A stretch of 64,000 bases of DNA from an uncultured bacterium (GTDB lineage: Bacteria; Patescibacteriota; Patescibacteriia; Patescibacteriales; UBA12465): the NCBI GenBank assembly GCA_938003925.1, contig CALKWQ010000015.1:1627-65626 (forward strand). Direction: 5' to 3'. Below the pieces are notes generated by a model. That model saw only the letters and a list, made by a program, of their open reading frames with translations. It had not been told where the DNA came from and did not search any database. Within the stretch, counting starts at the first letter, position 1; each line of letters begins with the position of its first letter. Below, one piece after another: positions 15,764-29,415 of the stretch. The position numbers and the translations under genes were made by a program.

Positions 15764-15915
15764 ATAAAAAATTTAAAAACTTTCAAACACAGAAGTATTA
15801 TACAAAATTTAATCATATTTTACCAGTAATTCAGAGCTTTTGACTTAAATTAAGTTTTATGGCAAAAGTAAGCACTCCAGTGAAGTAAATATTGAACTAT
15901 TTTATAAGTAAACTA

Positions 15916-15941
15916 ACAAAAACGAGCTAAAATGCTCGTTT
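15916..15941 (-). terminator. intrinsic terminator of the HD/PRTase/kinase operon
   Basis: Minus strand AACGAGC-ATTTTA-GCTCGTT followed by TTTTG. Confidence 0.55.
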
Positions 15942-16007
15942 GTGTACATATAAATCTAAAAGCCAAGCGCTAGAGCTTAAATAGCTAATTAAAAAAATCA
16001 AAACTTA

Positions 16008-16574
16008 CTATCTTGTGGCATTTTTGATTAATTTCTTGAAAGTGTGATAATTGTCTTCTACTTCTTGTTGGCAGATATCTAAAGATATAATATTATACTT
16101 TTCCTCTACTTTATTATCTAAATTACTTAAAACTTCATTAAAATTTGTAGTTCTATTACCAAATATCATCAGACCATGAAAAAATCCCTCAGGACTTAAA
16201 AATCGATAGCAATCAGAGTTAGCACAAATTTCTGCCTCCAAACAATAATAATTTTCTACTCCGTGGTGCGACTCAATACAACTAACTATTTTTTTAAAAA
16301 CTTCATCATCTAAATCAAATTGTTTCAAAAATTCTTGAGCAGCTAAAGAACTGTCTTTGACGTGTTCTGCTAGCCGCCCCTCTTGTATGCACTGCCCTAT
16401 CTTTAAATCCATTAACATAGTGCCAAGCAAGACTATGTCTTTATCTGCACCGAGAGCTTTAGCTAACTGTTGGCCTTTTTCATTAGCCAAAACAAAGTGT
16501 TCCTTTTTGGGGACGCCGTACTTATTAATTTCACTAATAGCCAACTCTCTGGCTAAATCTATAATTGCTTGCAT
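16008..16574 (-). CDS. HD-domain phosphohydrolase
   Basis: 188 aa. H..HD-type metal ligands (ESHHG and others). Confidence 0.65.
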   Translation of the reverse strand: MQAIIDLARELAISEINKYGVPKKEHFVLANEKGQQLAKALGADKDIVLLGTMLMDLKIGQCIQEGRLAEHVKDSSLAAQEFLKQFDLDDEVFKKIVSCIESHHGVENYYCLEAEICANSDCYRFLSPEGFFHGLMIFGNRTTNFNEVLSNLDNKVEEKYNIISLDICQQEVEDNYHTFKKLIKNATR

Positions 16575-16589
16575 ATTTTCAGAGCTTAA

Positions 16590-17258
16590 TTAATTAACAA
16601 ACTTGTCTAGAAATATTTTCATATCTGCGCTAATAAGGTCTGGATATTCCTCTTTATAAGTCTCATATAATTCTCTCCAAGTGAACACGGGGTGCAAATT
16701 TACTCCTAACTGAGCTAAATTCTCTCGAGCAGATTTTTCAATATCTAAAACAGTGATAACATCGTTAATTTGTAAGTTACTGGCTTGTAATTTATTAACA
16801 AATTCAATTACAGTCTTGGCGGTCACGGTAGCATCTTCAATCATTAAAACCCTATCTCCTGCCTGATATTCACCGAGTAATTCGCCCTGAGTGCTATAAT
16901 TCTTATAACCCTCTTTCCTAATGCTTAGACCCGGAACTCTTAACATGCTGGTGACACCGTAACTAAATGGCAACCCACCATAAGGAATACCGATTATCTG
17001 GTCAAAAATAATAGATTTATCTTCAATTATCTCGATAATGAGACGATTCACTTGCTCTAATAGGTCTGGAAAAGAAATAAATTTTGAAGTATCTAAAAAG
17101 ATTGGGGTACGGCTGTTATTTTTCAACAAAATCCAATCCTTCTCATCAATATTAGGTGAAATATATAAAAGTTTATGATCAATTATAGCTTTTATAACAT
17201 CTTTTTTCATATCTGGTTTTAAAAAAATCATTGTAATTATGAATAATAACTTAAACAA
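16590..17258 (-). CDS. type I phosphoribosyltransferase, orotate PRTase (PyrE)-like
   Basis: PRPP loop VLMIEDATVTAKT, GIPYGGLPFS, LLKNNSRTPIFLD resemble PyrE. Alternative start at 17210 (MKKDV). The track start overlaps the upstream gene by 8 nt. Confidence 0.65.
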   Translation of the reverse strand: MFKLLFIITMIFLKPDMKKDVIKAIIDHKLLYISPNIDEKDWILLKNNSRTPIFLDTSKFISFPDLLEQVNRLIIEIIEDKSIIFDQIIGIPYGGLPFSYGVTSMLRVPGLSIRKEGYKNYSTQGELLGEYQAGDRVLMIEDATVTAKTVIEFVNKLQASNLQINDVITVLDIEKSARENLAQLGVNLHPVFTWRELYETYKEEYPDLISADMKIFLDKFVN

Positions 17259-17826
17259 CCTGTTCTTTAAGTAATTTTATCACTTCTTTAAATGCCTTTA
17301 CCCCAGAAACCTCATCTGTAATTTCCAAAAAATAATCAGCTTCCTTTTTATTTGGGGCTTCAAAACGCTGTTTCTGCTTATTAACAAGTAAATCAATAAA
17401 GTCTTTAGAGTGATAGAGGCATTTTTGCGAACGCTGAGATGCTTTAATGCGACCTACCAATAAGGTTTCTGGCAAATTAAAATAAACCATAATTACTTTT
17501 CTGCCAGATTTTTTTGCCAAACGTCTAACTTCAGTTCTTATTTTTTTAGTTGAATTCGCACTAGTTGAAATGATTGGTAATTTTGTTTTTAAAGCTTGTC
17601 GGTAAACATCTAATACAACCATTCGTTTTAGGTGGTATCCAGAAGCTAATTCGTTAGAACCTTTAACAAAGTCCTTATCATATAAGTCTGGGTATTTATC
17701 CCTTAAGAACTCGGCTATTTCATCAGAATCTAACAGGCAAACGTGCTTCAATTTCTTGGCTATCTCCTTGCCGAAAGTAGTTTTGCCTGAGTGAGTCTTG
17801 CCAACCGTCATGATAACAAATGACAT
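17251..17826 (-). CDS. P-loop kinase (AAA_33 / polynucleotide-kinase-like fold)
   Basis: Walker A MTVGKTHSGKTTFG at the extreme N-terminus. 191 aa. Confidence 0.65.
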   Translation of the reverse strand: MSFVIMTVGKTHSGKTTFGKEIAKKLKHVCLLDSDEIAEFLRDKYPDLYDKDFVKGSNELASGYHLKRMVVLDVYRQALKTKLPIISTSANSTKKIRTEVRRLAKKSGRKVIMVYFNLPETLLVGRIKASQRSQKCLYHSKDFIDLLVNKQKQRFEAPNKKEADYFLEITDEVSGVKAFKEVIKLLKEQVV

Positions 17827-17956
17827 ATTATTAATGATATTAAATCAATATTTATATTATACCGAATAATTGATATTTTAAGAATACTAAGATAATTAGA
17901 ACAATTTATTCCTATATACTTAAAATTTATTAATTACCTTTAGGGCCCTTAACCTA

Positions 17957-17980
17957 AGAAAAAAGAGCCTTTCGGCTCAA
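17957..17980 (-). terminator. intrinsic terminator downstream of X1
   Basis: Minus strand GAGCC-GAAA-GGCTC followed by TTTTTT. Part of a 37-nt repeat shared with 25092-25128. Confidence 0.6.
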
Positions 17981-17992
17981 TTTTGATGTTTT

Positions 17993-18056
17993 GCTCGGGG
18001 TCGCGGACAAAGTTCGAACCAAAGTCATTCAATATACCCATTATAAGAGACTGGGC
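17993..18056 (-). repeat. X1: tRNA-3'-end-like repeat (family X), begins right after the stop codon of 18057..19088
   Basis: Minus strand ...TTTGGTTCGAACTTTGTCCGCGACCCCGAGCAA. 25/27 identity to the X core gctcggggtcgtggacgaagttcgaac. Confidence 0.6.
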
Positions 18057-19088
18057 TTAATTCCTAGACTCATCTTCCCTGCCGATCTCTTCACAAACTT
18101 CTAGTCCTATGTTTTTAAGTGAAGCTTCTAGATCTTTATCATTAATTACTCTAGCTTCATTGTGTTTAGTAAATATTCCTCTATTTTTAGTGGTAAAGCC
18201 ATCTTTTGGTAAATTAACAGCTGTAGATGTCTTATCGCCTAACAGAGTTAATCTTCCTCTCTTAATATATGATTTAACTAACTTAATCACTGCTTTATCA
18301 TTATAGTTCTCTAGAATTGTACTCATGGCTCTCTTAACACTGTCAAAATCACCCTTAGAACGTCTAAATTCTTCTGATCCAATACTCATAATAAAGTCTA
18401 GAATATCAGTAGCTTTCTTTTCTTTTTCACCAATCTTTTTATCTTTGTTAAAAACAATATCAGGCATATTTAAAACTGGCTCACTAACTTCACCATCTTC
18501 ATGATTCTTAAAGATAATATCTCCAGCAAGAACTTCTCCCACTCCACCGTGTTCATCATGTATTTTTCTTAGATATTTACCTGATTCAGCTAAAGCTTGA
18601 AATCTATCAAAACCTTCTACTTTATCACTATTTATTAAATCAGAACGATAAAGGTCCTGTAAGGGTAAACCTTTTAGGTAAAGACCCTTATCTTTGATCT
18701 CAATACCCTTCTCATGAATATCATAGGCATATTCCAATCCTAATCTTTTTATATTCTCAAAAATCTCTTCCTTGCCACCCCTATATCTTTTTGTGCCCGG
18801 AGCTAAAAACTTAAAAAATAGCTTTGGATGACGGCTAAAAAGCTCACTTAAATCTTTAACAACATGTTCATCATAAGTTCTCAGTATAGCATCACCAAAT
18901 TTATCTATTTTAGAAACAATTCCTTTATTATTCCAAATCAGCTTGCCATCATCTTCTATCTCCATTTTTCCACCATAAACACCCACAGTGCTTTCAAAGT
19001 CCTCAGTTGGAACTCTTGATTCATTAACTTGTTCATTAACAGAGTCTCTAATCTTATTTAACGGATTAAAATTTTCAAATTTAAACAT
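18057..19088 (-). CDS. hypothetical protein (343 aa)
   Basis: Long ORF. Weak kinase-like flavour (YLRKIHDEHGGVGEVLAGDIIF), but catalytic residues are not recognisable. Confidence 0.6.
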   Translation of the reverse strand: MFKFENFNPLNKIRDSVNEQVNESRVPTEDFESTVGVYGGKMEIEDDGKLIWNNKGIVSKIDKFGDAILRTYDEHVVKDLSELFSRHPKLFFKFLAPGTKRYRGGKEEIFENIKRLGLEYAYDIHEKGIEIKDKGLYLKGLPLQDLYRSDLINSDKVEGFDRFQALAESGKYLRKIHDEHGGVGEVLAGDIIFKNHEDGEVSEPVLNMPDIVFNKDKKIGEKEKKATDILDFIMSIGSEEFRRSKGDFDSVKRAMSTILENYNDKAVIKLVKSYIKRGRLTLLGDKTSTAVNLPKDGFTTKNRGIFTKHNEARVINDKDLEASLKNIGLEVCEEIGREDESRN

Positions 19089-19138
19089 ATTTTTATATTA
19101 TAATAACTAAATTATATCATCTTTAAAAAGAGCCAACA

Positions 19139-19172
19139 ATAAAAAAAGAGGATGTTTTTACATTCCTCTTTA
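19139..19172 (-). terminator. intrinsic terminator (minus strand) inside the 720-nt non-coding gap
   Basis: Minus strand AGAGGAATG-TAAAAA-CATCCTCT (one bulge) followed by TTTTTTT. Confidence 0.5.
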
Positions 19173-19209
19173 ATCCAAGCATATTATTTTAGGAAAAAAT
19201 CTTCAATAT

Positions 19210-19311
19210 TTATTTATACATATCTCGAGTTGCACGCTCAGTAAAATGCCAAATTAAGGGGTGAAATAGAGAAGTTATCCCTATCATCACGCCGGCAAAT
19301 AATTTGGCCAT
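19210..19311 (-). CDS. possible 33-aa hydrophobic micro-ORF
   Basis: Hand-found: MAKLFAGVMIGITSLFHPLIWHFTERATRDMYK*. Sits between the T3a module and the 19139-19172 terminator. No other support. Confidence 0.2.
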   Translation of the reverse strand: MAKLFAGVMIGITSLFHPLIWHFTERATRDMYK

Positions 19312-19411
19312 TAATTTTAATGTTCTGTGTTTTTTTCATTTCTATCTATTTTTTAAGATTAAAAAAACTATTTTTTACTAACAAAAAAGCATGCCACACG
19401 GTATATTTTTT

Positions 19412-19453
19412 GACAGAACTCGGATTCGAACTAACAATCCCCTTTATTTTCAG
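19412..19453 (-). repeat. T3a: tRNA 3'-half-like fragment (family T3)
   Basis: Minus strand AAATAAAGGGGATTGTTAGTTCGAATCCGAGTTCTGTC, followed by a decayed copy of the TTGACA-N17-TATACT module. Confidence 0.5.
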
Positions 19454-19474
19454 CTCTTTTTACACATTTGACGT

Positions 19475-19505
19475 AAACAAAAAACATGACCTAAATCATG
19501 TTTCT
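19475..19505 (-). terminator. terminator-like hairpin between X2 and T3a
   Basis: Minus strand AAACATGA-TTTAGG-TCATGTTT followed by TTTGTTT. Confidence 0.5.
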
Positions 19506-19537
19506 TTGTATTTTGGCTAATGTTTAATACCTTGTAC

Positions 19538-19630
19538 CGGTCTTAAACACCAAAACGTTGTTGGCTCGGGGTCGTGGACGAAGTTCGAACCAGTGTGGCT
19601 AAGATTAAATAAGAATTAAGGGGATCATCT
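19538..19630 (-). repeat. X2 (19564-19630) plus 32-nt linker repeat (19538-19569)
   Basis: 27-nt core gctcggggtcgtggacgaagttcgaac at 19564-19590, identical to X3. Linker cggtcttaaacaccaaaacgttgttggctcgg is 31/32 identical to 22859-22890. Confidence 0.65.
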
Positions 19631-19809
19631 TAATGCGCTAAAGTTCAACTGAGGAATTTAATTATTTTCTACATGGCCTGGATTTCTATTATCAAGTCTC
19701 CTTTTTCCAGGGAGGTGCTAAACACTTCATAAGCCAGAAACACTTATTTTAATAATATCATTTTTTTGATATAATTAAATATATATAATAATATTTAATA
19801 ATATTTAGT

Positions 19810-21585
19810 ATGATAAATTTTTACAAAAAATTATTTTTTGTTTTAATGATTTTTATAGGGCTCCATTTCGCATCATCAGCTAAAGCGTCAGAATCATTTA
19901 CCGTCCTTACTCCAGTTGATGGAGTATCAGCTTCTATTGGTGATAATTTAAATATTTCTTGGTCAACCACTATCAATCAAAGCGATATTATTATGCAGAA
20001 AATTTCTTTTCAAGATGCTTATGGTCAATCTTATACAAACGCCTTACCCGATAATCATCATTTTACCATGGTTCCCGCCGGGACCAATAACTATAATTGG
20101 AAAATTCCTTCTGACGCAAATGGACTAATGGAAATTGAGCTATATAGCAGCTATTATGATTCTGAACAAAATGTAGCTATTTATTCTAAAAAAGTAAAAA
20201 TTAATGTAAGTCAGAATGCAAGCATTACCTTCCAGGAACCTAAATCTGGAGCTATTTATAATTTTAATGACAACATTCCTGTTAACTATGAATATAGTGG
20301 CTCAGGCAATGATGCTACTTTGCCAAAGAAATTTTATTTATACCGTGGAGACGATCTAATGGAAGATGATATATATATATCTGGCTCTAATAAATTCTGG
20401 ATCCAAAAAAGTCATTTAAGCGGAGATAATTACCGAATTAAAGTCCGCATCGGCTCTACCGAAGCTTTCAGTCCTTATTTTACAATAAAATATCCGGCTA
20501 TTGATGAAGTTAATGTTAATCTAGACAATACTAAATCATACATAATCGGTAGTAATTATGATATTACCTGGAGTTCCAACTGCAAGGGCGGAGTGGCTAC
20601 GATTTGGTTTTCAACTACACCTGAAGCATCTACTGAGGGCCAAATTATCTTTCCTCTAAGCAACTTTCAGAGTGCTAAAAATTTATTGGGAACAGATGCT
20701 TTTTACACTTATCAGAACGCCTTTATGTTCAACACTCTTGCCAACACAATGTTAAGCCCTAATCTCGAAAAAATAAATTGGTCAGTTCCAGAACAAATGA
20801 GTTTTTCAAATTATTCTTTTAACAATCAACTTACTAATTCATATTACATTTTTCGTCGCCCAAACAATGAATATGTAATTGCAGAAAAATCAAAAAACCC
20901 AGTCATTCTCACTGTCACCCCTGGACAATATGTAGTCCGTGTTGATATTAAGGGTGCTAATGGCTGTTTTGCTACTGGACAGAGCCAAATAATTAATGTT
21001 GCTGCTAAAGGCTCGCAAGATGCTCCTAAAATCGTAATACCTACTAAAATCACCACACCAATCAAATCTGACGTTGATAAAAACTCTTATGATTATTCTT
21101 TTTCAAAAAAACAGGCCGGAAAAATCTTACTGCAAGTTGAGTCTCGAGGAGAAGCTTGGTATGTAAATCCTAAAGATGGACGAAGACAATACATGGCTGA
21201 TGGCGCTACAGCTTATAGTATTTTGAGAAGTTATGGCGTTGGCATTACCAATAAAGATTTAAATAAGATTCTGGTAGCCACTGATTTTATTGATAATCTT
21301 GCAAACCTAGACTCAGATAATGATGGTTATAACGATAAACAAGAATTGCAGAACGGTTATAATCCATATGCTAGCGGAAAACTAGTGATAGATAAAAGTT
21401 TTTCTAACATACATAAGGGAAAAATATTTTTACAAGTTGAGTCTCATGGCGAAGCTTGGTATATAAATCCGATTGATGGTTTAAGATATTATTTAGGGGG
21501 GGCAAGTGATGCCTTTAACGTCATGAGAAGTTTGGGGCTAGGCATTACAAATACCAACTTAAATAAAATACCAATTAACAATTAA
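19810..21585 (+). CDS. secreted repeat protein (signal peptide; Ig-like-looking N-terminal repeats; two C-terminal ~55-aa repeats flanking a DxDxDG Ca-binding-type motif)
   Basis: 591 aa. Tandem KILLQVESRGEAWYVNPKDGRRQYM...GVGITNKDLNKI and KIFLQVESHGEAWYINPIDGLRYYL...GLGITNTNLNKI, with DSDNDGYNDKQE between them. Confidence 0.8.
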   Translation: MINFYKKLFFVLMIFIGLHFASSAKASESFTVLTPVDGVSASIGDNLNISWSTTINQSDIIMQKISFQDAYGQSYTNALPDNHHFTMVPAGTNNYNWKIPSDANGLMEIELYSSYYDSEQNVAIYSKKVKINVSQNASITFQEPKSGAIYNFNDNIPVNYEYSGSGNDATLPKKFYLYRGDDLMEDDIYISGSNKFWIQKSHLSGDNYRIKVRIGSTEAFSPYFTIKYPAIDEVNVNLDNTKSYIIGSNYDITWSSNCKGGVATIWFSTTPEASTEGQIIFPLSNFQSAKNLLGTDAFYTYQNAFMFNTLANTMLSPNLEKINWSVPEQMSFSNYSFNNQLTNSYYIFRRPNNEYVIAEKSKNPVILTVTPGQYVVRVDIKGANGCFATGQSQIINVAAKGSQDAPKIVIPTKITTPIKSDVDKNSYDYSFSKKQAGKILLQVESRGEAWYVNPKDGRRQYMADGATAYSILRSYGVGITNKDLNKILVATDFIDNLANLDSDNDGYNDKQELQNGYNPYASGKLVIDKSFSNIHKGKIFLQVESHGEAWYINPIDGLRYYLGGASDAFNVMRSLGLGITNTNLNKIPINN

Positions 21586-21629
21586 ACCGTATAACGTTAC
21601 CTTTAAAATTCGGATTAATTAAATATTTA

Positions 21630-21657
21630 AAAAAACGAGCATTTCTGCTCGTTTTTA
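21630..21657. terminator. bidirectional intrinsic terminator
   Basis: aaaaACGAGCA-tttc-TGCTCGTttttt: 7-bp stem with A-run and T-run flanks. Serves the plus gene and, on the minus strand, follows module Ya. Confidence 0.7.
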
Positions 21658-21660
21658 TAT

Positions 21661-21720
21661 CAATGCTCCCGCAGTAATATTCGAACCGGAGTCGGTCTTA
21701 AAACATGAATATCCACTGCC
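21661..21720 (-). repeat. Ya: tRNA-like fragment (family Y)
   Basis: Minus strand CGGCAGTGGATATTCATGTTTTAAGACCGACTCCGGTTCGAATATTACTGCGGGAGCATTG. 6/7 acceptor-like pairing CGGCAGT/ACTGCGG, but only 39 nt lie between the arms. Confidence 0.5.
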
Positions 21721-21844
21721 GTATATAACGTTAGCTAAGTTTAAGACCTAACACTAATTACTATTAACATTTAACTTAATAACTCCTTCTTTATCCTAGC
21801 TGAACATTCTTCACAAATACTTTGGCAAAATATTTGTATTAAAA

Positions 21845-22252
21845 TTACAATATGGAGTTTAAATCAAAATCATTAAATTTTTCTGGCAAGCGGCCGACAC
21901 TTTTTAAAAAAGGAATACCGACTCGCAAAAAATTTTTTTGTATATCCATATAACCATTTTTTCTAAGATTTTCGTTGTTTTCATTTATAGTATCAATTGC
22001 CTCGCTCAAATAACTTTCGATTTCTTCATCTGACATTATTTCATATTGGGATTTACCAAAATTACCTTCTAATTCTTCATCTGGCGTACTTCCTAAAGCT
22101 TTGTGATCTTCGCTAGTTAAAGAAAAAAATCCTTGTTCTTTTGATTTCTTAGCAGCTTGTTCAAATGCAGATATCTTTTGTTTTTCAAAATTTTCCATAC
22201 TATTAAAAAAATTACATATCCCTTGGTAATACCATACCACTATACGATTCAT
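21845..22252 (-). CDS. hypothetical protein (135 aa)
   Basis: ORF. Its ATG overlaps the TGA of the upstream Nudix gene (ATGA overlap), which supports co-translation. Confidence 0.5.
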   Translation of the reverse strand: MNRIVVWYYQGICNFFNSMENFEKQKISAFEQAAKKSKEQGFFSLTSEDHKALGSTPDEELEGNFGKSQYEIMSDEEIESYLSEAIDTINENNENLRKNGYMDIQKNFLRVGIPFLKSVGRLPEKFNDFDLNSIL

Positions 22253-22689
22253 TTAGCCTGGTATATCTTTCCGGCTTTTAAATTGCGAATCATAAGTTCT
22301 GTTCCTTCGAAAATTTTATCAGGCAAATCATCTATGCTAAACCACCTCCATTCCCCCCATTTATCTGGCTCTTCAACATTTGGCACCCCGCCTTTATAAA
22401 CACCTTCAGTTCCTATGTTTAAATAGTGTTTACCATCTGTTTCTATGTATCTCATTTCATCTGCAACTGATATTAATTTGAACTCATCAATATCCAAGCC
22501 AGTTTCTTCTTTAACTTCTCGCTTTGCTGTTTCAAATATAGTCTCGCCGAACTCCAGATGACCCCCAGGAAATGACCATTCTCCAGCTCCATGAGATCCT
22601 TTTCTTAACCCTAATAAAACTTCTCCCTTATCATTTTTTATCATTACCCCGATGCCAACTTTAGGATATTTTTTTTCTAAATTATTCAT
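22249..22689 (-). CDS. NUDIX hydrolase (MutT-like)
   Basis: Nudix box GGHLEFGETIFETAKREVKEETGL. 146 aa. Confidence 0.8.
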   Translation of the reverse strand: MNNLEKKYPKVGIGVMIKNDKGEVLLGLRKGSHGAGEWSFPGGHLEFGETIFETAKREVKEETGLDIDEFKLISVADEMRYIETDGKHYLNIGTEGVYKGGVPNVEEPDKWGEWRWFSIDDLPDKIFEGTELMIRNLKAGKIYQAK

Positions 22690-22709
22690 ATTTATTATCT
22701 GATGCTTTA

Positions 22710-22718
22710 ATTATAGCA
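22710..22718 (-). promoter_or_regulatory. extended -10 element (TGcTATAAT) for 22249..22689
   Basis: Minus strand TATGCTATAAT, 20 nt upstream of the ATG. Confidence 0.4.
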
Positions 22719-22731
22719 TAAATATTAATTG

Positions 22732-22772
22732 GACAGGAGTGGGATTCGAACCAAAAACCCCTTTATTTACAG
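22732..22772 (-). repeat. T3b: tRNA 3'-half-like fragment (family T3)
   Basis: Minus strand AAATAAAGGGGTTTTTGGTTCGAATCCCACTCCTGTCCAA: canonical-looking T-loop and 3' acceptor strand, with a decayed 5' T-stem. Confidence 0.55.
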
Positions 22773-22791
22773 ACCTTTCCGCTTATTTGAC

Positions 22792-22826
22792 TAAAACAAA
22801 AGAACTCAGCACAAACTGAGTTCTTT
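22792..22826 (-). terminator. intrinsic terminator between X5 and T3b
   Basis: Minus strand AGAACTCAG-TTTGTG-CTGAGTTCT (perfect 9 bp) followed by TTTGTTTT. Confidence 0.65.
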
Positions 22827-22858
22827 CGATTTTTTTGGTAATATTAGACCTCTCCTGT

Positions 22859-22929
22859 CGGTCTTAAACACCAAAATGTTGTTGGCTCGGAGACTGGGAT
22901 AAAATTGGAACTTTTTTGTAATAAATTAC
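22859..22929 (-). repeat. X5 (degenerate family X copy, 22884-22929) plus 32-nt linker repeat (22859-22890)
   Basis: ggctcggagactgggataaaattggaac aligns to the X core with many A/T substitutions. Starts right after the stop codon of 22930..23277. Confidence 0.5.
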
Positions 22930-23277
22930 TTAATTTTCTCTAATAATTGTCGGTTTAAAAAATCTTTCCTGGAATTCAACCAAAGACAGAATTTGCTCAT
23001 CAGAATAACTAACTCCATCTGGCACAACTATTAATTTATCATCGTCATCATCTAATCTATGAATTATGGCAATACATTTTCCAGTAAATTCTTCTTTTGG
23101 TTCAAATACTCCTAAAATATAAGCATCAACTCCTTCACCATCAGGAGCTAATTCATTTTCAATATAACCGTAATTAAAAGAATAATAGATATCGTATTTA
23201 GGGTGCTTAGACCCCAAAGCTCTATCTACTTTAACATTAACAATTTTATTTAAAAATTTAGTGGCATAATTATTCAT
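22930..23277 (-). CDS. small inorganic-pyrophosphatase-like protein (family I PPase fold, truncated type)
   Basis: 115 aa. DGEGVDAYILG...IIHRLDDDDDKLIVVP resembles the DGDPLD / acidic metal-binding cluster of soluble PPases. Assigned from recall. Confidence 0.55.
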   Translation of the reverse strand: MNNYATKFLNKIVNVKVDRALGSKHPKYDIYYSFNYGYIENELAPDGEGVDAYILGVFEPKEEFTGKCIAIIHRLDDDDDKLIVVPDGVSYSDEQILSLVEFQERFFKPTIIREN

Positions 23278-23283
23278 GAAATA

Positions 23284-23292
23284 ATTATAACA
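23284..23292 (-). promoter_or_regulatory. extended -10 (TGtTATAAT) only 6 nt from the ATG of 22930..23277; possible leaderless mRNA
   Basis: Minus strand TGTTATAAT-TATTTC-ATG. Confidence 0.35.
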
Positions 23293-23319
23293 TATAGTTC
23301 TAAAGCTATAAACTCCCTA

Positions 23320-23350
23320 CTAAAAATAGCCCCTAAAATAGGGCTATTTA
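23320..23350 (-). terminator. intrinsic terminator downstream of X3
   Basis: Minus strand ATAGCCC-(8-nt loop)-GGGCTAT followed by TTTTTAG. Confidence 0.55.
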
Positions 23351-23355
23351 AAAGT

Positions 23356-23421
23356 GCTCGGGGTCGTGGACGAAGTTCGAACTAATGTGACTAATATTTA
23401 AGAAAAACTAGAAGTATAATC
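23356..23421 (-). repeat. X3: tRNA-3'-end-like repeat (family X), begins right after the stop codon of 23422..23964
   Basis: 27-nt core at 23356-23382, identical to X2. Flank ...actaatgtgactaatatttaag aligns with X2/X4. Confidence 0.65.
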
Positions 23422-23964
23422 CTACTTAGAATCTTGAAAATCAATAAGATACTTATAAATGCCTTCAAAACCCTCTAAACTAGGGGCCCAATCATTAGAA
23501 TCATTTTTAATTCCCTCTACTATATCTTGCGCTGGCAACCACTTCACTTCTTGAACCTCATTATCAGCAAATTTTAAACTACTAATATCCTCTAATCCTG
23601 GATAATAATAAACATAAGTAAATTCATTGTTTGGCAAATCATCTCTTTTTAAAATTGGCCCGGGAATAAATTTATTAATATCAGCCCTTAATCCAATTTC
23701 TTCTTCTAACTCAGATATAAGTGTTTGTTTTACATCCTGACCTGATTTTAAATGGCCACCAAAACGTGTGTCCCACATGTTTGGGCACAAATCTTTTGCT
23801 TTAGACCTGAGATGAACGAGAAAATAATATTCATTATTCTTCTTCATAAAATAATAAATATGAACCGTTCTGTGCCAAGAGCCGTCTTTGTGAATTAGAG
23901 ATCTCAATTTCTTTTCTCCCGTAATATTATTATTTTCATCAACAATATCTAAATATTCTTCCAT
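23422..23964 (-). CDS. NUDIX hydrolase (IDI/ADP-ribose-pyrophosphatase-like subgroup)
   Basis: Nudix box GGHLKSGQDVKQTLISELEEEIGL. 180 aa. Confidence 0.75.
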   Translation of the reverse strand: MEEYLDIVDENNNITGEKKLRSLIHKDGSWHRTVHIYYFMKKNNEYYFLVHLRSKAKDLCPNMWDTRFGGHLKSGQDVKQTLISELEEEIGLRADINKFIPGPILKRDDLPNNEFTYVYYYPGLEDISSLKFADNEVQEVKWLPAQDIVEGIKNDSNDWAPSLEGFEGIYKYLIDFQDSK

Positions 23965-23986
23965 AGTAATTAAGATAAGAGCTTTT

Positions 23987-24913
23987 TTAATGTTCTAGTT
24001 CCTCTTTAATTAGTGGAACGATTTGCTTGCGCATGATTAAATTTGGCCTTTTGGCAACAGCCTCATTAAATTTAATATTTAAAACTTTTTCCAATAGTTT
24101 CTGTGTTTTTAGATCTGGACTGATAAAATAATTACATTCTAACTCTAACTCGATAGTATTTTGAAAAATATAATCTAGTCCCATATCTTGCCTTATTTTC
24201 TCAAGTACCTTAATAATTTCTTCAATTCTTTCTTTGATAAGCATCTCAGCTCCGACAATTTCAATTTGAGCAATGCCAACTTTTTTATCAGCAAAAGTAA
24301 ACCACGCAAAATCGCCTTCAATTCTTTCACTCAACTTGCTTCCTGATAAATCTGACTTGGCCATAAAAAGATCTTTCCAGAAATTATCTGGCAAGAGTGC
24401 TATTTTATCAAGATACTCTACGGCCTTTTTATCTCTGTCTGTTGTAACTCCACCCTTAAAATTAAGAGTATTGGATATAATGGCTCCACAAAGTAAAATT
24501 GCTGACTCTTTGGAAATATTAATATTATTTTCAATAAACTTTTCTGCTATTAAAGTAGCAGCTGAGCCGACTAATTCAATTTGCACCCTAGCATTAGGAA
24601 ATTTATCAGCTTCATTAATTTTTCTGTGATCAATAATCTCAACTACTTTTTCCGGCGCAATATTTCCCTCAAGACCATTTAAATCGCTGGCGTCAACCAG
24701 GACGACCTCATCAAAATTATCAGCATTAATTATTTTCTGGGGATATGGAATATTATAACGATCTAAAATATATTTAGCTTCGTCGTGCGGCTCTCCGATA
24801 ATACCAACAATAGATTCTCTGCCCGTCTTCTGTAAAAATTCACCATAGGCAAAGGCTCCAGCCACCCCATCTAAGTCTGGATTTACATAACATGTGATAA
24901 GTGTTGGTTTCAT
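23987..24913 (-). CDS. DHH-family phosphoesterase, family II (Mn-dependent) inorganic pyrophosphatase-like
   Basis: NPDLDGVAGAFAY, VLVDASD, IIDHRK and the C-terminal LFMAKSDLSG...VGIAQIE segment resemble PpaC/DHHA2 proteins. Assigned from recall. Confidence 0.7.
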   Translation of the reverse strand: MKPTLITCYVNPDLDGVAGAFAYGEFLQKTGRESIVGIIGEPHDEAKYILDRYNIPYPQKIINADNFDEVVLVDASDLNGLEGNIAPEKVVEIIDHRKINEADKFPNARVQIELVGSAATLIAEKFIENNINISKESAILLCGAIISNTLNFKGGVTTDRDKKAVEYLDKIALLPDNFWKDLFMAKSDLSGSKLSERIEGDFAWFTFADKKVGIAQIEIVGAEMLIKERIEEIIKVLEKIRQDMGLDYIFQNTIELELECNYFISPDLKTQKLLEKVLNIKFNEAVAKRPNLIMRKQIVPLIKEELEH

Positions 24914-24921
24914 ATATCACT

Positions 24922-24927
24922 ATTATA
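24922..24927 (-). promoter_or_regulatory. -10 box TATAAT 8 nt from the ATG of 23987..24913; possible leaderless mRNA
   Basis: Minus strand TAGGTTATAAT-AGTGATAT-ATG. Confidence 0.35.
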
Positions 24928-24957
24928 ACCTAAAAATTAAAATATAAAAACCAAAAA

Positions 24958-25001
24958 CACAGGACGTGGATTCGAACCAATATTGACCAATGAAATCAAG
25001 G
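24958..25001 (-). repeat. T3c: tRNA 3'-half-like fragment (family T3)
   Basis: Minus strand TTGGTCAATATTGGTTCGAATCCACGTCCTGTG. Confidence 0.5.
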
Positions 25002-25029
25002 TTTTTATATAAATTACTGTAGATTATCT

Positions 25030-25078
25030 AAAATATCCCAAAAATATTCGAACCGCTTTGGAACTTAAAATGTATCTA
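25030..25078 (-). repeat. Yb: tRNA-like fragment (family Y)
   Basis: Minus strand TAGATACATTTTAAGTTCCAAAGCGGTTCGAATATTTTTGGGAT aligns with Ya (GGATA..CAT.TTTTAAG....CGGTTCGAATATT). Confidence 0.5.
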
Positions 25079-25086
25079 ATATTAAA

Positions 25087-25111
25087 ACAAAAAAAGAGCC
25101 TTTCGGCTCAA
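25087..25111 (-). terminator. intrinsic terminator downstream of X6
   Basis: Minus strand GAGCC-GAAA-GGCTC followed by TTTTTTT. Same hairpin as at 17957-17980. Confidence 0.6.
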
Positions 25112-25123
25112 TTTTGTTGTTTT

Positions 25124-25183
25124 GCTCGCCTGGAGAGACAGCTTCCGAACTTGGATGGCTAATAATAAATAATATTTTGACCC
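25124..25183 (-). repeat. X6: degenerate family X copy, begins right after the stop codon of 25184..26869
   Basis: gctcgcctggagagacagcttccgaacttggatggctaataat aligns to X1/X2 (gctcg...ttcgaac...tggcta) with substitutions. Confidence 0.45.
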
Positions 25184-26869
25184 CTAATTCTTCATTCGCC
25201 TAACTTCCAAATCTACTAAATTATCTAGATTAAAATTTTCTCTTTCCGTTTCACATTCTTTTCTCTCTTTATCCGGATAGTTACTGCAGTTGGGATAACG
25301 GGCTACAAATTGCACCAAATAAACATTATTTTCTATTACTGTTGTATAAGCATATTGCGTATAGACAGATCCCGCCGCGCCCTCGCTAGAAGCACCTATG
25401 CAATATTTCTGGCCGTTTATTTCCTTTTTACTTATTCGAAGAGGTAAGCTAGATTCTAGAGGGGTTTCATTACACTCTATTTCACCATTTTCTATCCAAG
25501 ATTCTAACTTGGGGTATTCTTCGGCTTTAAATATGTTCGAACTATAATTTTGAAATGAAATATAACTAGCCTTAAAACTATCTGGTAAATTTGATTCTAT
25601 ATTCCCTTCTTCGGTATATAAATATTTAACCCCTATCACCTTGATTGTGCCTAAAGTTTTATAAATATCGCTTTCTTCGTTAACCAGCTCGCCGCTAATT
25701 TCTATTTTTTGCCCCTTTCTTATCTTATTAACTATATTATTTTTATCATCACTGGGCGCTTGCAAGCGATAATAATCACTATTACTATTCTTAATACCAA
25801 ATACACACAAATCATTATGCGATATATTCTCATCTTTTAGAGGCAGGCAAACAAACTCTCCAGAAACAACAAATAAATTATCATCTCCGCTCATCCCCTT
25901 ATATTCGCTTAAAAAATGAAAAGACTCCGATATTTTTTGATCAAAGCAATTATCATAAAAGAACCCCAGGCCAATCTGACATTCTTGTCCCGTACTCCAA
26001 AAAGCGACTCTTTTTTGAACCGGACTATAAATTATATAATTTGTATAATTGACCGGACATAAAGTCGACCCCAAATCTTTACCATCTCCATCTATTTCTA
26101 CGCGATAATTTCCACTGAATTGAGTCGGTATTTTGGCCTTATAACTACAACCAGAGCCAAGTTTTTGTTTAATAATTTTGTCTAAATCATCTTCATTTTC
26201 AACATTTAAAATCACGAAATGCCAAGACAAGGGATACTTAGAAGTATTATCATATTCAGGAATAAAAGTATTTTCTGTCTTCACCGATTCTCCGGTTTGC
26301 CAATCAAATGATATATCGTATTTTTGATGGAGATAAAAATTGTTATTTTTACTTAATACTTGGTTAGGGAGTAAAACGTCTAAGCCTTCCGGTAAATTAG
26401 TCCAAAGTTTACTATCAATAGACAATGACGGGTAACGAAACATAAAACCATATTCTTCATTTTTATAGTCAATCCATTCAATCGATTCTCTGGCATTTTT
26501 GATTATAATAAGACTCCAAATAGAGTAAAAACGAGAATAATGGCGATGCGTAGCCAATAGCGCATTATCATTTTTATCTTTAAAAAAATAACCAGAACCC
26601 ATCTGGCTGATAAATTCGTAGCCTTGATCTTTCAATAAACTAACTAAAACTTCTTGACCATTTTTGCCTTTAGTTAAATATTTATCTCCACCTATGTCTA
26701 ATTTAACAATTTTATTGCTAGCGAAATTTAATTGTATTATCCCTTTTAGTAGAGGGGTCGGGTTGCCTTCCTGAAAAATTACTGGCCGATATAACAAAAA
26801 AGCTAAAATAAAAATAATAATTAAGCCGCCAAAAAAAATTGATACTACCTTTTTATTTATTTTTAGCAT
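25184..26869 (-). CDS. hypothetical membrane-anchored protein (561 aa)
   Basis: Long ORF with N-terminal TM (VVSIFFGGLIIIFILAFLL). No family recognised. Confidence 0.6.
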   Translation of the reverse strand: MLKINKKVVSIFFGGLIIIFILAFLLYRPVIFQEGNPTPLLKGIIQLNFASNKIVKLDIGGDKYLTKGKNGQEVLVSLLKDQGYEFISQMGSGYFFKDKNDNALLATHRHYSRFYSIWSLIIIKNARESIEWIDYKNEEYGFMFRYPSLSIDSKLWTNLPEGLDVLLPNQVLSKNNNFYLHQKYDISFDWQTGESVKTENTFIPEYDNTSKYPLSWHFVILNVENEDDLDKIIKQKLGSGCSYKAKIPTQFSGNYRVEIDGDGKDLGSTLCPVNYTNYIIYSPVQKRVAFWSTGQECQIGLGFFYDNCFDQKISESFHFLSEYKGMSGDDNLFVVSGEFVCLPLKDENISHNDLCVFGIKNSNSDYYRLQAPSDDKNNIVNKIRKGQKIEISGELVNEESDIYKTLGTIKVIGVKYLYTEEGNIESNLPDSFKASYISFQNYSSNIFKAEEYPKLESWIENGEIECNETPLESSLPLRISKKEINGQKYCIGASSEGAAGSVYTQYAYTTVIENNVYLVQFVARYPNCSNYPDKERKECETERENFNLDNLVDLEVRRMKN

Positions 26870-27233
26870 AGTTTTTTATTAATAAATTAGCACCTCTAAT
26901 AACAATTCCTACCAGTCCGCCAAAAATGATTATGGCAGCAAAGAATAGAGTCGTATATAAAGCTTCTGGAATATAAAAATTTTCGCCAGAGTTGTAGACA
27001 ATTATTTGCCAGATAACTACGAATACAAAACTAGTTATAATTGAGCCAATAATCAGTTTGGGCAAAAAACAATAACTTTTATGTTCATTTTGCACCAAAA
27101 CCATTAAAACTCCGGCGACCAAAGGCAATAATATTATTTGCCAACCCCAAAAAAATGTAAACCAATCTGGTTTAAGGGTAAACATAAAGCTAACTATTAC
27201 TGTCAGCGCAGAAATAAAATAAATTTTTTTCAT
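26853..27233 (-). CDS. hypothetical 4-TM membrane protein
   Basis: 126-aa hydrophobic ORF. Overlaps the downstream gene by 17 nt. Confidence 0.5.
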   Translation of the reverse strand: MKKIYFISALTVIVSFMFTLKPDWFTFFWGWQIILLPLVAGVLMVLVQNEHKSYCFLPKLIIGSIITSFVFVVIWQIIVYNSGENFYIPEALYTTLFFAAIIIFGGLVGIVIRGANLLIKNYAKNK

Positions 27234-27297
27234 ATAATAATTATATCCTATAACTGTTACTTTAAAAACAGCGATACAAATTATACTTTTTTACTTA

Positions 27298-27326
27298 AAT
27301 AAAAAATAGGCTATTATTAGCCTATT
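27298..27326 (-). terminator. intrinsic terminator of 27326..28201
   Basis: Minus strand AATAGGCTA-ATAA-TAGCCTATT followed by TTTTTATTT. The stem abuts the stop codon. Confidence 0.6.
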
Positions 27327-28201
27327 TATTTTTTTACGTTCTCCTGCAAAATCTTATCTCTTAGCTTATCTCCCCCTATTTCATAGGCGGCTTTAACTAC
27401 AGATTCTTGGGTATTATCAACATTTTTAATAATCCGCAATACCTCGGGCATTTCTTGTTTTACAAGCTCAAGGAAATCATTGGATCCATCGAAATAAGAC
27501 TTAAAAAAGGGCCAGATGAATTTTTCACTTTTGTTGAGAAAAACCTCCTCAATTAAATGCACATGCAACGCATAGGCAAATTCATAAAAAATCCGACCCT
27601 TCTCTTCTTTACTAAATAAATTATCAAAAGCTCCGACTCTTTCCATTTCTCGTAATACAACTTTAGACCAAAGATCTGTGGCGGCTTCATTTAATCCAAA
27701 GCATGGACTATTTCCTTTTTCGCTTAAAGAATGAAAGCCTAGTTGATAAAAATCAATAGATCTACATTCCTTATTTTCTTTAACAGAAACAGAATAAAAT
27801 GAAAAAAGGTGGGAGATTTCATGAGCAATATCAATTACAAAATGACACCTATCTTTATTCTTCCTAAGGAAAATGTAACCAAACGAGCAGTTGCCGCCCT
27901 CATTTTCTGACATTTTAACATTTTTCTCATAAACTTCGTCATCTAAAATAATGATTTGATTATCAAATATTCTCATTGGCTTAAAACCATTAACTTTAAG
28001 AAGATTATTTCCCGCCTTTATAGCCGCAGCAATAATATGCTTCTCAAAGGTGGTCCAAATGAAAGACGAGACTTGGTGCACATTCATAACACGAGCAATT
28101 AAAAAATCATTTTTTGTTTCCTCGCTTACGGGCCCAATAAACTTTGGGGCATAGTTCCATTTTTCCTTCCAATAACCATTTCCAATATCTTTCGCACTCA
28201 T
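27326..28201 (-). CDS. hypothetical protein with HExxH zinc-metalloprotease-type motif
   Basis: 291 aa. VIDIAHEISHLF contains HEISH. No further family assignment. Confidence 0.55.
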   Translation of the reverse strand: MSAKDIGNGYWKEKWNYAPKFIGPVSEETKNDFLIARVMNVHQVSSFIWTTFEKHIIAAAIKAGNNLLKVNGFKPMRIFDNQIIILDDEVYEKNVKMSENEGGNCSFGYIFLRKNKDRCHFVIDIAHEISHLFSFYSVSVKENKECRSIDFYQLGFHSLSEKGNSPCFGLNEAATDLWSKVVLREMERVGAFDNLFSKEEKGRIFYEFAYALHVHLIEEVFLNKSEKFIWPFFKSYFDGSNDFLELVKQEMPEVLRIIKNVDNTQESVVKAAYEIGGDKLRDKILQENVKK

Positions 28202-28246
28202 TTGTACAAATTTTTAAGGTTCAACAATCATTTTAATTATCAAAAA

Positions 28247-28275
28247 AGTATACTATACGTATGCCTTTTTGTCAA
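28247..28275 (-). promoter_or_regulatory. sigma70-type promoter TTGACA-N17-TATACT for 27326..28201
   Basis: Minus strand TTGACA (28270-28275), 17-nt spacer, TATACT (28247-28252). Lies directly after X4. Homologous to 29255-29283. Confidence 0.55.
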
Positions 28276-28276
28276 T

Positions 28277-28342
28277 GCTCGGGGTCGTGGACGAAGTTAG
28301 AACTAGTGTGGCTAAAATTAAGGAAGAATTCAAGGGTTAATC
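28277..28342 (-). repeat. X4: tRNA-3'-end-like repeat (family X)
   Basis: Core at 28277-28303 is 26/27 identical to X2/X3. Its 3' end CCCCGAGCA-TTGACAAAA matches the tRNA-Gln 3' end plus flank. Confidence 0.65.
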
Positions 28343-28395
28343 TTTTATTTATATCTAAGTTACTAGAAAAATAACTATATATCCCCATTTCTCTA

Positions 28396-28428
28396 AAGAA
28401 AAAGGGCGCTCATGTTTGAACACCCCTC
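28396..28428 (-). terminator. weak terminator-like hairpin after 28484..28849
   Basis: Minus strand AGGGGTG...CGCCCT (6 bp with bulge and wobble) followed by TTTTTCTTT. Confidence 0.35.
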
Positions 28429-28483
28429 TAAATAATATAAGTTCATTTTTACCTTGTGTCGCCCCAGAAACCATCATTAACCT

Positions 28484-28849
28484 TTATCTTACCGACATCA
28501 GGCATTCTACACTGGAATAGAAGCCAGACATGACGTATGGTCGAATAATACACTCAACCAAAGCAGCTTTGGGAAAAGTTTGATGTACCTCATCAACCAG
28601 GTCAAGCACTAATCGTCTTTTAACTTTTTCGGTTCTTTCCGGTTTTTCAGTTAAGCCATCGATAAAAACAATGATTTCTTCGCCCAAACCTTTAGTCATA
28701 AGGTTTTGAGGAAAAAATATTGAAACCTGTTCTCTTTTAATTCTCAAATCTGCAATATCAGCAGCTCTTTGACACATAAGATCGGAAAAAATTTCCAATG
28801 TTTCTTTATCCGTTTCCGTTGGAATTCCATAAACAATCAAGATCGGCAT
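28484..28849 (-). CDS. hypothetical protein; possible tautomerase-superfamily fold (N-terminal Met-Pro)
   Basis: 121 aa. Begins MPILIVYGIP and has two beta-alpha-beta-like halves. Strong SD (GGAGGG) upstream. The family call is speculative. Confidence 0.5.
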   Translation of the reverse strand: MPILIVYGIPTETDKETLEIFSDLMCQRAADIADLRIKREQVSIFFPQNLMTKGLGEEIIVFIDGLTEKPERTEKVKRRLVLDLVDEVHQTFPKAALVECIIRPYVMSGFYSSVECLMSVR

Positions 28850-28892
28850 GATACCCTCCTTTTTTTAAGTGAATAATTAATTTTTTTAAATT

Positions 28893-29207: not shown

Positions 29208-29247
29208 TTTATGAATTTTTAAAGGTTCGACAATACAATTTTAACTA

Positions 29248-29283
29248 TCAAAAAAGTATACCACATAGGTATACTTTTGTCAA
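29248..29283 (-). promoter_or_regulatory. overlapping tRNA-Gln terminator hairpin and TTGACA-N17-TATACT promoter
   Basis: Minus strand TTGACA(29278-83)-AAAGTATACCTATGTGG-TATACT(29255-60)-TTTTTT. AGTATACC/GGTATACT also forms a perfect 8-bp hairpin followed by T6. Confidence 0.6.
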
Positions 29284-29287
29284 CTTG

Positions 29288-29358
29288 CTCGGGGACAGGG
29301 ATTCGAACCCCGATAAACAGGACCAGAACCTGTTGTCCTACCATTAGACGATCCCCGA
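29288..29358 (-). tRNA. tRNA-Gln (anticodon CUG)
   Basis: Hand-folded cloverleaf. Acceptor UCGGGGA/UCCCCGA (U1-A72), D arm GUCU..GGAC, anticodon arm ACAGG-UUCUGGU-CCUGU, T arm CGGGG-UUCGAAU-CCCUG, discriminator G. No encoded CCA. Confidence 0.9.
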
Positions 29359-29388
29359 ATAAAGGCGGCTATCGGTATTAAGCCGCCA
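29359..29388 (-). terminator. intrinsic terminator of lysS, abutting the tRNA 5' end
   Basis: Minus strand GGCGGCT-(10-nt loop)-AGCCGCC followed by TTTATT. Confidence 0.55.
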
Positions 29389-29415
29389 TATTGATATCGG
29401 TATTATAACAACTAA

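Follow-up and report, generated by a model that had tools for sequence, protein, structure and literature searches.

Conserved tRNA-end-like motifs in the leaders of putatively mobile gene cassettes behind a tRNA-Gln gene in Patescibacteriota

What are short segments resembling the 3' half of a tRNA doing between the terminator of one gene and the promoter of the next, several times over in a single locus? The question is raised by a 64-kb stretch of DNA from an uncultured member of the Patescibacteriota (UBA12465; assembly GCA_938003925.1, contig CALKWQ010000015.1, positions 1,627 to 65,626 of the forward strand), here called the window. Two families of such segments, T3 and Y, lie on its minus strand, and an original prediction made from the sequence took them for remnants of at least two further tRNA species or for diverged attachment (att)-type sites. 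Comparison with related loci shows that T3 and one of the two Y copies, Y2, are conserved, oriented, internal parts of the leaders of mobile cassettes. It is likely that T3 and Y are att-derived modules of cassettes mobilised by a recombinase. With less assurance, we favor a fuller reading in which T3 and Y2 are probably cis-modules of small mobile gene cassettes, stacked head-to-tail 3' of a tRNA-Gln gene, mobilised by a large serine recombinase (LSR) and possibly bound by it. That T3 and Y act as functional recombinase-binding accessory sites is a tentative proposal.

Coordinates refer to the whole stretch, and the cassette array runs on its minus strand. The array starts directly 3' of tRNA-Gln(CUG) (29287-29358), and eight elements with a ...GAGC(A/C) end, namely the tRNA-Gln itself, four copies of X, and one each of X', X'' and Y1, split it into seven units. 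The copies of X are located at 28276, 23355, 19563 and 17992; X' is found at 25124, X'' at 22884 and Y1 at 21665. The comparison set comprised 81 genome loci and 52 metagenome contigs, the latter retrieved with the core of X; its members are cited by L numbers.

T3 and Y2 belong to two leaders of stereotyped composition. Leader A (~190 nt) consists of a linker, a terminator and T3a, with both copies of 'AAATAAAGGGG' (T3a) at its end, while leader B (~170 nt) consists of a terminator, Y2 and T3b. Both recur in dozens of genomes or contigs. Profiles built only from copies in other genomes (49 non-window copies for leader B) recovered the window's leaders with nhmmer at 25151-24957 (E=1.3e-46), 19604-19414 (E=2.2e-47) and 22918-22733 (E=8.9e-47). 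The similarity is therefore not confined to the heptamer GTTCGAA, since modules of ~190 and ~170 nt are recovered at E values of about 1e-46 to 1e-47, and the composite unit proposed in the original prediction is borne out by the recurrence of leaders A and B. The strings it had quoted for T3 and Y were all found in place on the minus strand, and both gaps it had described follow the same order of modules (stop codon, X, linker where present, terminator, Y where present, T3, -10 box, ATG), with terminator-like hairpins at 22828-22797 and 25109-25096.

Orientation and order are fixed well beyond the window. Every match to T3, Y, X and the linker in the comparison set lies on the strand of the tRNA or X; the metagenome contigs contributed 44 copies of T3b, 34 of Y2 and 6 of T3a, with zero on the opposite strand. 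Related loci show either X at position n, Y2 at about n+88 and T3b at about n+150, or a junction followed by linker, terminator and T3a. The order from Y2 to T3b is constant, with a spacing of 62-76 nt.

Conservation within leader B is uneven. Across 50 unique copies, information is near-maximal at the junction core, at the T-tract with GTTTTTGTTTTAATATTAG, and at ATTTTAAGTTCCAAAG, GGTTCGAAC (Y2), TTGATTTTATTGG and GGTTCGAATCC (T3b), and it is low in the spacers and immediately past the 11-mer GGTTCGAATCC. Unique copies of Y2 (41 in number) retain 87% identity per column. The 11-mer corresponds to the T loop plus flank of the resident tRNA-Gln and is present too in the tRNA-Asn and tRNA-Ser targets, while the sequences that flank T3 and Y (TTGATTTTATTGG, AAATAAAGGGG and ATTTTAAGTTCCAAAG) are conserved, non-tRNA sequence in all copies. 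Since the motifs are strongly conserved and the adjacent spacers vary, a protein most likely still binds them, and the LSR is the most economical candidate. Furthermore, the position of T3 and Y2 between a terminator and the next promoter makes a role at the DNA level more plausible than one at the RNA level.

Comparison of cassettes between genomes argues that the cassettes are mobile and that the junction is their boundary. Cassette 3 differs from its counterpart in L089 by 3 mismatches in 1775 nt (99.8% identity), and the identity is bounded by GAGCA on both sides. L089 comes from a different metagenome-assembled genome (MAG), whose LysRS is 78% identical to that of the window; the cassette lies there behind tRNA-Gln(UUG), and the window's exact DHH protein is also encoded in it. 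Similarity starts just past GCGAGCA and stops exactly after CCCCGAGCA, and upstream of the cassette the X' elements of the two loci are 87% identical and the preceding genes unrelated. Because the shared unit (25129-23355) extends from leader B to X, Y2 and T3b lie within the cassette, not at its edges. Other near-identical segments in differing contexts break at offsets of 0, 0, 0, +1, +1, -4, -8, +10 and +12 from the junction ends, and a 6.5-kb block lies behind X in one contig and behind tRNA-Gln in another, its identity beginning in the common CCCCGAGC. Seven further internal boundaries were placed 0-12 nt from the ends of junctions. Cassette boundaries thus fall at a short core common to host and element sites, as expected of LSR elements.

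The two Y copies, which the original prediction placed in one family, are both present, but they differ in kind. Y1, with the structure GTTTTAAGACCGAC-TCCG-GGTTCGAAT-N10-GAGCA, terminates in GGGAGCA and has the spacing of a tRNA; these features identify it as a true junction at a cassette end, in the 10-nt class of the tRNAs. It recurs in L049, L037, L010 and L116 with different leaders behind it, and contig L094 terminates at Y1. Y2 is a leader motif without the core.

An LSR with the domains Resolvase, Recombinase and Zn_ribbon_recom is a recurrent family in the arrays. Its genes (13 full or partial copies in related loci) are convergent to a junction and overlap it, whether at tRNA-Gln (L002, L022, L025, L029, L035, L063, L140), at tRNA-Asn (L102), at X (L138, L115) or at X' (L123); examples lie at 11945-13594 of L022, 11483-13135 of L035, 88-1722 of L102 and 1566-3107 of L138 (oriented copy). 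In these four examples, and in L115 and L123, the LSR stop codon falls within the tRNA gene or X on the opposite strand. The C-terminal tail varies with the type of junction, and the last 15-25 residues are the antisense translation of the junction: ...SSM is followed by LGDRDSNP... over tRNA-Gln and by LGVVDEVRTSVAKIK... over X, and ...SSV by LAWRDSFRTWVANNR over X'. This antisense coding of the LSR tail would explain why X is conserved over ~80 nt and resembles a tRNA end.

The spacing between the T-loop-like motif and GAGC is bimodal, with 10 nt in 67 unique sites (tRNAs and Y1) and 15 nt in 77 (X, X' and X''), and the reverse-strand control is flat. The tRNA-Gln 3' end (GGTTCGAAT-N10-GAGC) belongs to the 10-nt class. 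Among the 15-nt sites, the tRNA-3'-end mimic X at 28276-28342 is followed by a TTGACA-17-TATACT promoter, and X'' has the form GTTCCAAT...CTCCGAGCC, a type found also in L138 (8632-8659), L100, L127 and L129. In serine integrases, the 9-bp motif recognised by the zinc-ribbon domain (ZD) sits 5 bp further out in attP (half-site positions 16-24) than in attB (positions 11-19) (Rutherford et al. 2013, PMC3783163). With the GA of GAGC taken as the crossover dinucleotide, spacings of 10 and 15 nt fit the attB and attP positions exactly, and the ZD-type motif lies 5 bp further out in X-class than in tRNA-class sites, a sequence geometry that matches LSR elements. From this we infer an attB-type left half-site in the tRNA 3' end and an attP-type one in the X-type elements.

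In the mechanism that we propose, each cassette would comprise a 5' leader (an insulating terminator, optionally Y2 and/or T3, and its own promoter), 1-3 cargo genes, and a 3' junction that mimics a tRNA 3' end and finishes in ...GAGC. The LSR would insert and excise cassettes by recombining at or beside the GA of GAGC, the presumed crossover position. A tRNA 3' end (T-loop-like 9-mer, 10 nt, GA) would provide the attB-type left half-site and X, X' and X'' (same 9-mer, 15 nt, GA) the attP-type ones; in autonomous elements the junction would double as antisense code for the LSR C-terminal tail. T3a, T3b and Y2 would retain a 9-11-nt T-loop-like motif, presumably the ZD recognition motif, having lost the GAGC core or the right spacing, and could be orphan, inactivated junction half-sites fixed within leaders. 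Since they keep the distal motif without a usable core, and have an unpaired stem and no covariation, they appear to be derivatives of junction elements. In recombinase-less cassettes mobilised in trans, T3 and Y2 may then serve as accessory or regulatory LSR sites. A wider scheme would have Falkowbacteria-like members of the candidate phyla radiation (CPR) capture genes in integron-like fashion through LSRs, with tRNA-Gln, tRNA-Asn and tRNA-Ser 3' ends as attB, mimic ends coding for the LSR C-terminus, mostly recombinase-less mini-cassettes moved in trans, and T3 and Y2 as LSR-bound accessory half-sites with an architectural or regulatory role; as a whole it is rather doubtful.

Several points weigh against an LSR-bound role for T3 and Y2. 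Characterised serine integrases need att sites of only ~40-50 bp, and we know of no accessory sites for these enzymes; the leader-B motifs T3b and Y2 lie ~88 or ~150 nt from the crossover. A leader containing T3 or Y stands behind only ~40% of 107 unique junctions, so that the motifs cannot be obligatory given the ~60% without one. What follows these junctions is leader B in 32 cases, leader A in 12, a plain TTGACA promoter in 12, a recombinase gene or its remnant in 10, and something else in 42. Arrays in which a B/P' site is followed by P/P' sites would need sites to pair in ways that canonical serine integrases avoid, and conservation of the motifs could stem in part from common descent of the leaders, not from selection. 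Lastly, no recombinase gene was found in the 64-kb window with jackhmmer from a few seeds and a Pfam summary, a search that could miss other enzymes.

Among rival explanations, the serious one is that T3 and Y2 are neutral fossils, dead junctions of past cassette insertions or deletions that hitchhike in the leaders. The missing GAGC core and the many junctions without T3 or Y2 agree with it, as does the T3a copy at 19431, which resembles a junction with a deletion: together with the promoter/hairpin downstream, it aligns with the tRNA-Gln 3' end and the same module, with ~10-13 nt missing (including repeat family D8). Nor is recent cargo exchange visible at T3, since no pair of near-identical leaders carrying different cargo was found; on the same grounds we rejected T3 as an active cargo-exchange site. 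Neutral relics of equal age should decay evenly, however, whereas the 11-mer and its specific flanks are near-invariant in 50 diverged copies in which the spacers and the sequence after the 11-mer vary freely, and the order and spacing of Y2 and T3b are maintained. We regard fossils as the less likely reading. T3 might alternatively be an upstream promoter element (an UP-element, or an activator or repressor site) whose likeness to a tRNA is incidental or inherited. It is always the last module ahead of the promoter, and counted from the start of GTTCGAATCC, TATAAT clusters at +39 to +44 and TGnTAnnnT at +34 to +39, with no conservation of the sequence between; in the window, TGcTATAAT lies 34 nt past the T3a copy at 22751 and TGgCATGCT 36 nt past that at 19431. 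Yet among 61 copies, only about one in four places a -10 box at the modal distance, the rest being scattered from +24 to +100, and a promoter role leaves both Y2 and the identity with the recombination-site motif unexplained, which makes this reading quite improbable.

Least probable by far, and hard to sustain, is the reading of T3 and Y as degraded 3' portions of two or more further tRNA genes, or as tRNA-like RNA structures acting as processing or stability signals. T3 does have a perfect T loop, the T3a copy at 22751 shares GGTTCGAATCCCAC with tRNA-Asn, and stretches of up to 18-19 nt are common to T3b variants and tRNA-Gln(UUG). Against a tRNA-Gln profile, nhmmer aligns T3b over positions 41-66 (E=0.002), T3a over 47-66 (E=0.018) and 51-65 (E=0.22), and Y2 only at E=4.9; the T3 alignments end before the last six nucleotides, while X aligns over 47-72 with a 5-nt insert. 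T-stem pairing in T3 averages 3.10 of 5 over 62 copies against 3.10 +/- 0.08 in shuffled sequences, as compared with 5.0 of 5 in 53 real tRNA-Gln copies, so that T3 was rejected as a T arm; the 5' strand that had been called decayed is instead a conserved, non-pairing ATTGG. The "plausible 7-nt acceptor strand" fares no better, as information falls right after GGTTCGAATCC in the 50 unique copies of leader B. The hairpin of Y2 can pair in 90% of cells, but its covariation is no higher than in shuffled alignments, of which 491 of 500 attain the score of the real one, and it was likewise rejected. At E<=10, an Rfam scan of 15000-31000 recovered only the genuine tRNA-Gln, with no match at T3 or Y, permissive Rfam thresholds added nothing beyond tRNA-Gln in the window's array and five related ones, and ARAGORN reported tRNA-Gln and tRNA-Leu only, again with nothing at T3 or Y. 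Lying between a terminator and the next promoter, T3 and Y are also probably barely transcribed, and their flanks are non-tRNA sequence. Two or more further tRNA species are thus not indicated: the 11-mer is the only conserved tRNA-like part, and it is that of the resident tRNA-Gln, besides which no parent tRNA seems to be needed. The alternative of diverged att-type sites fits broadly, given cassette boundaries at tRNA-3'-end mimics, alignment of T3 with tRNA-Gln over about 41/47-66, and a Y1 spacing equal to that of the tRNA.

Table 1. Coordinates of the tRNA, junctions, leaders and motifs of the array, with the basis of each assignment.
Feature	Position	Strand	Basis
tRNA-Gln(CUG), proximal array anchor	29287..29358	-	ARAGORN; Rfam 59 bits; LysRS synteny in 80 loci
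X, end of cassette 1 (104-aa and 121-aa genes)	28276..28342	-	repeat families D1, D2; module scan
X', end of cassette 2 (291-, 126- and 561-aa genes)	25124..25176	-	module scan
Cassette 3: leader B and promoter, DHH/DHHA2 phosphoesterase, Nudix, X ending CCCCGAGCA at 23355	23355..25129	-	L089 comparison; Pfam
Leader B of cassette 3: hairpin/terminator 25096-25109, Y2, T3b	24957..25123	-	nhmmer; terminator scan
Y2 = ATTTTAAGTTCCAAAGCGGTTCGAAT (GGTTCGAAT at 25054-25046), inside leader, without GAGC core	25030..25078	-	
T3b = TTGATTTCATTGG-N9-GGTTCGAATCC (11-mer at 24978-24968)	24958..25001	-	tRNA-Gln profile alignment
X'', end of cassette 4 (115-aa pyrophosphatase-like gene)	22884..22917	-	repeat families D2, D4
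Leader A copy 1: linker TTTTGGTGTTTAAGACCG 22859-22876, terminator 22797-22828, T3a 22732-22772 (motif GGTTCGAATCC at 22752-22742)	22733..22883	-	nhmmer
Y1, junction ending cassette 5 (GAGC at 21668-21665)	21661..21720	-	recurrence in other contigs; 10-nt spacing
X, end of cassette 6 (591-aa gene on plus strand)	19563..19629	-	repeat families D1, D2; module scan
Leader A copy 2: linker 19538-19555, AT-rich hairpin, T3a 19412-19453 (motif AGTTCGAATCC at 19432-19422)	19414..19562	-	nhmmer
Distal X, end of cassette 7 (343-aa gene) and of array	17992..18025	-	repeat families D2, D5; Pfam; GC profile

Copy 1 of leader A is followed by TGcTATAAT and a 146-aa Nudix gene, and contigs L093 and L094 begin at its junction; copy 2 is followed by a decayed TTGACA-type promoter/hairpin (19383-19416). 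The TTGACA-17-TATACT promoter begins 0-3 nt past a junction at 29255-29283 and 28247-28275; the spacer and -10 region double as a hairpin, with a T run behind it. The recurrence of this promoter module behind tRNA-Ser in L119 and behind tRNA-Gln in several genomes marks it as a third recurrent type of leader.

Some further readings of the leaders were set aside. Blastn detected nothing beyond the T-loop motif when the leaders were considered as decayed 3' ends of a recombinase gene; by eye, the first ~35 nt of leader B resemble a hairpin within the recombinase 3' end. The linker hairpin TTGGT-GTTTAAG-ACCGA was dropped as an anticodon arm (anticodon UUA) because a 5' half is missing, as is a T arm at the distance seen in tRNAs, and because Y1 lacks the stem. 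Inspection likewise disposed of a small conserved open reading frame (ORF) in leader B, the window copy having no ATG and stops in all frames. Outside the array, a copy of the first ~60 nt of leader B lies at 12725-12786 on the minus strand, just past the IleRS stop codon at 12827 (nhmmer E=1.6e-07); it consists of the hairpin ACAGGTTTTTAATACCTGT and then TTTTTTGTTTTAATATTAGATATATTTAAGTT, without junction element, Y2 core or T3. This stretch of leader B could serve these genomes as a general terminator module.

Other origins for the junctions were also considered. Seeded with CPR Xer proteins, jackhmmer matched only housekeeping Xer genes at distant loci; neither the window nor the array contigs yielded a tyrosine recombinase, so that a tyrosine recombinase or integron origin was rejected. 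A phage attP origin was rejected on scans of IMG/VR viral contigs, in which the X core had 0 matches and the linker 7, with no similarity beyond the pattern.

The array (17.9-29.4 kb) has a G+C content of 31-34%, compared with 40-48% in the upstream flank (30-64 kb) and a more mixed ~32-42% in the downstream flank. By Pfam, it is bordered by LysRS and GreA on one side and, past the distal X, by core genes for an AAA_33 kinase, a phosphoribosyltransferase and IleRS on the other. The minus strand has 10 copies of GTTCGAA, all of them within 18019-29308 and none in its remaining 52 kb. Each unit holds 1-3 accessory genes, among them two Nudix genes, DHH/DHHA2, a pyrophosphatase-like gene and several without assignment. 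The synteny of LysRS and tRNA-Gln is preserved in 80 species-level genomes, and the gene content 3' of tRNA-Gln is almost wholly different from one of these 80 loci to the next; clustering of array ORFs likewise showed very diverse cargo. Arrays were found also behind tRNA-Gln(UUG), tRNA-Asn(GUU) and tRNA-Ser(UGA) in related contigs.

Many contigs stop tens to hundreds of bases past tRNA-Gln. Those that end 0-300 nt after it include L001 (SRR27197543; 8270-8434), L012, L018, L030, L033, L040, L045 and L048. L001 encodes a LysRS 100% identical to that of the window, yet its sequence differs immediately after GAGC, which suggests that the array is strain-variable and probably under-assembled in MAGs.

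The cargo itself offers some further observations. The 591-aa gene (19810-21585, plus strand) is the sole cargo gene in the opposite orientation; it has a weak match to TSP3 repeats and an internal 300-nt tandem duplication of 75-76% identity (21099-21191/21399-21491 and 21224-21269/21524-21569). Elsewhere, a reverse transcriptase (RVT_1) is cargo in 8 loci, with a bAvd-like protein in the same arrays (metagenome contigs L113, 277-1344, and L046, 15453-15965, oriented copies); such arrays look as if they carry diversity-generating retroelement cassettes as cargo. Fic/DOC proteins and DNA methylases also recur. Three contigs (L006, 11647-11878; L023, 2776-2996; L147, 1669-1880) share a mutually homologous, G+C-rich, non-coding insert of ~210 nt with GAGCGA-like repeats, preceded by a junction and a terminator and without an Rfam match. 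It closes with an exact 18-21-nt copy of the 3' end of the resident tRNA, starting midway through the T loop (tRNA-Gln in L006 and L023, tRNA-Asn in L147), and could represent a non-coding cassette or a structured RNA. In the window, a gene for a Na+/Ca2+ exchanger (5208-6177) is not part of an array; its 72%-identical homologue in L089 (7623-8573) is a cassette between leader B and X, directly behind tRNA-Gln(UUG).

Little is known, to our knowledge, about gene exchange in the tiny-genome CPR/Patescibacteria. This locus offers a concrete route, as a 1.8-kb cassette is 99.8% identical across genomes that have 78%-identical LysRS and different tRNA-Gln genes. Since many assemblies of the group break directly after tRNA-Gln, such arrays are likely to be systematically under-represented in MAGs. 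We found no description of CPR or Falkowbacteria cassette arrays in the searchable literature, which is weak evidence of novelty. If the LSR model is true, the short, predictable tRNA-end sites would be new natural attB/attP pairs with a readable spacing code and natural variants, of interest for integrase engineering, and T3 and Y2 would stand as the first candidate accessory sites of a system of this kind. As a practical matter, T3 and Y motifs should not be annotated as tRNA pseudogenes.

In mechanism, as far as sequence allows it to be read, the array resembles staphylococcal cassette chromosomes (SCC), SCCmec composites and enterococcal cassette chromosomes (ECC). There, large serine recombinases use the 3' end of a single conserved housekeeping gene (rlmH/orfX) as the insertion site, and elements form tandem arrays whose recombinase-less members are bounded by integration-site repeats and thought to be moved in trans. 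A serine recombinase, a housekeeping-gene target, tandem elements and recombinase-less members are the points in common. Unlike SCC, where Ccr acts at rlmH, the targets here are the 3' ends of tRNA-Gln, tRNA-Asn and tRNA-Ser, the cassettes, at 0.5-3 kb, are far smaller and all begin with a stereotyped terminator-promoter leader, the LSR gene overlaps the site and the site encodes its tail, and the hosts are CPR/Patescibacteria. We know of no extra motifs of the T3 or Y type described for SCC.

The sites themselves resemble those of the A118/LI serine integrase in their 9-bp distal motif and their two spacing classes 5 bp apart, 10 for the host and 15 for the element (PMC3783163). As at serine-integrase sites, element boundaries fall at a short common core. 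In contrast to such sites, the right half-sites here have no clear inverted copy of the motif, and X plus the next leader formally amounts to an attP-like site inside the chromosome.

Tycheposon integrases are reportedly mostly tyrosine recombinases. Tycheposons bring an integrase of their own (937 putative integrase-carrying elements), with partial copies of the island tRNA at their flanks (10.1101/2020.12.28.424599). With tycheposon islands (10.1101/2020.12.28.424599) and the tDNA islands of Islander (PMC4383910), the array shares growth from a tRNA that pushes older elements distally, partial tRNA copies between elements, and scattered degenerate elements and extra partial tRNAs. It differs in that its units are mostly tiny and recombinase-less, the associated enzyme is an LSR, no tyrosine integrase having been found, and the window's separators are conserved mimics that contain a 5-nt insert, not exact tRNA copies; exact copies of 18-19 nt occur only around the small GC-rich insert of L006, L023 and L147.

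With integrons, finally, the arrays share a dense, one-orientation arrangement of 1-3-gene cassettes that each end in a recombination site, diverse cargo, and identical cassettes in distant genomes. Unlike integrons, they have neither IntI nor attI, and their junctions are direct mimics of a tRNA end instead of attC-type hairpins; the cassettes bring their own promoters and terminators, and the array is anchored at a tRNA gene.

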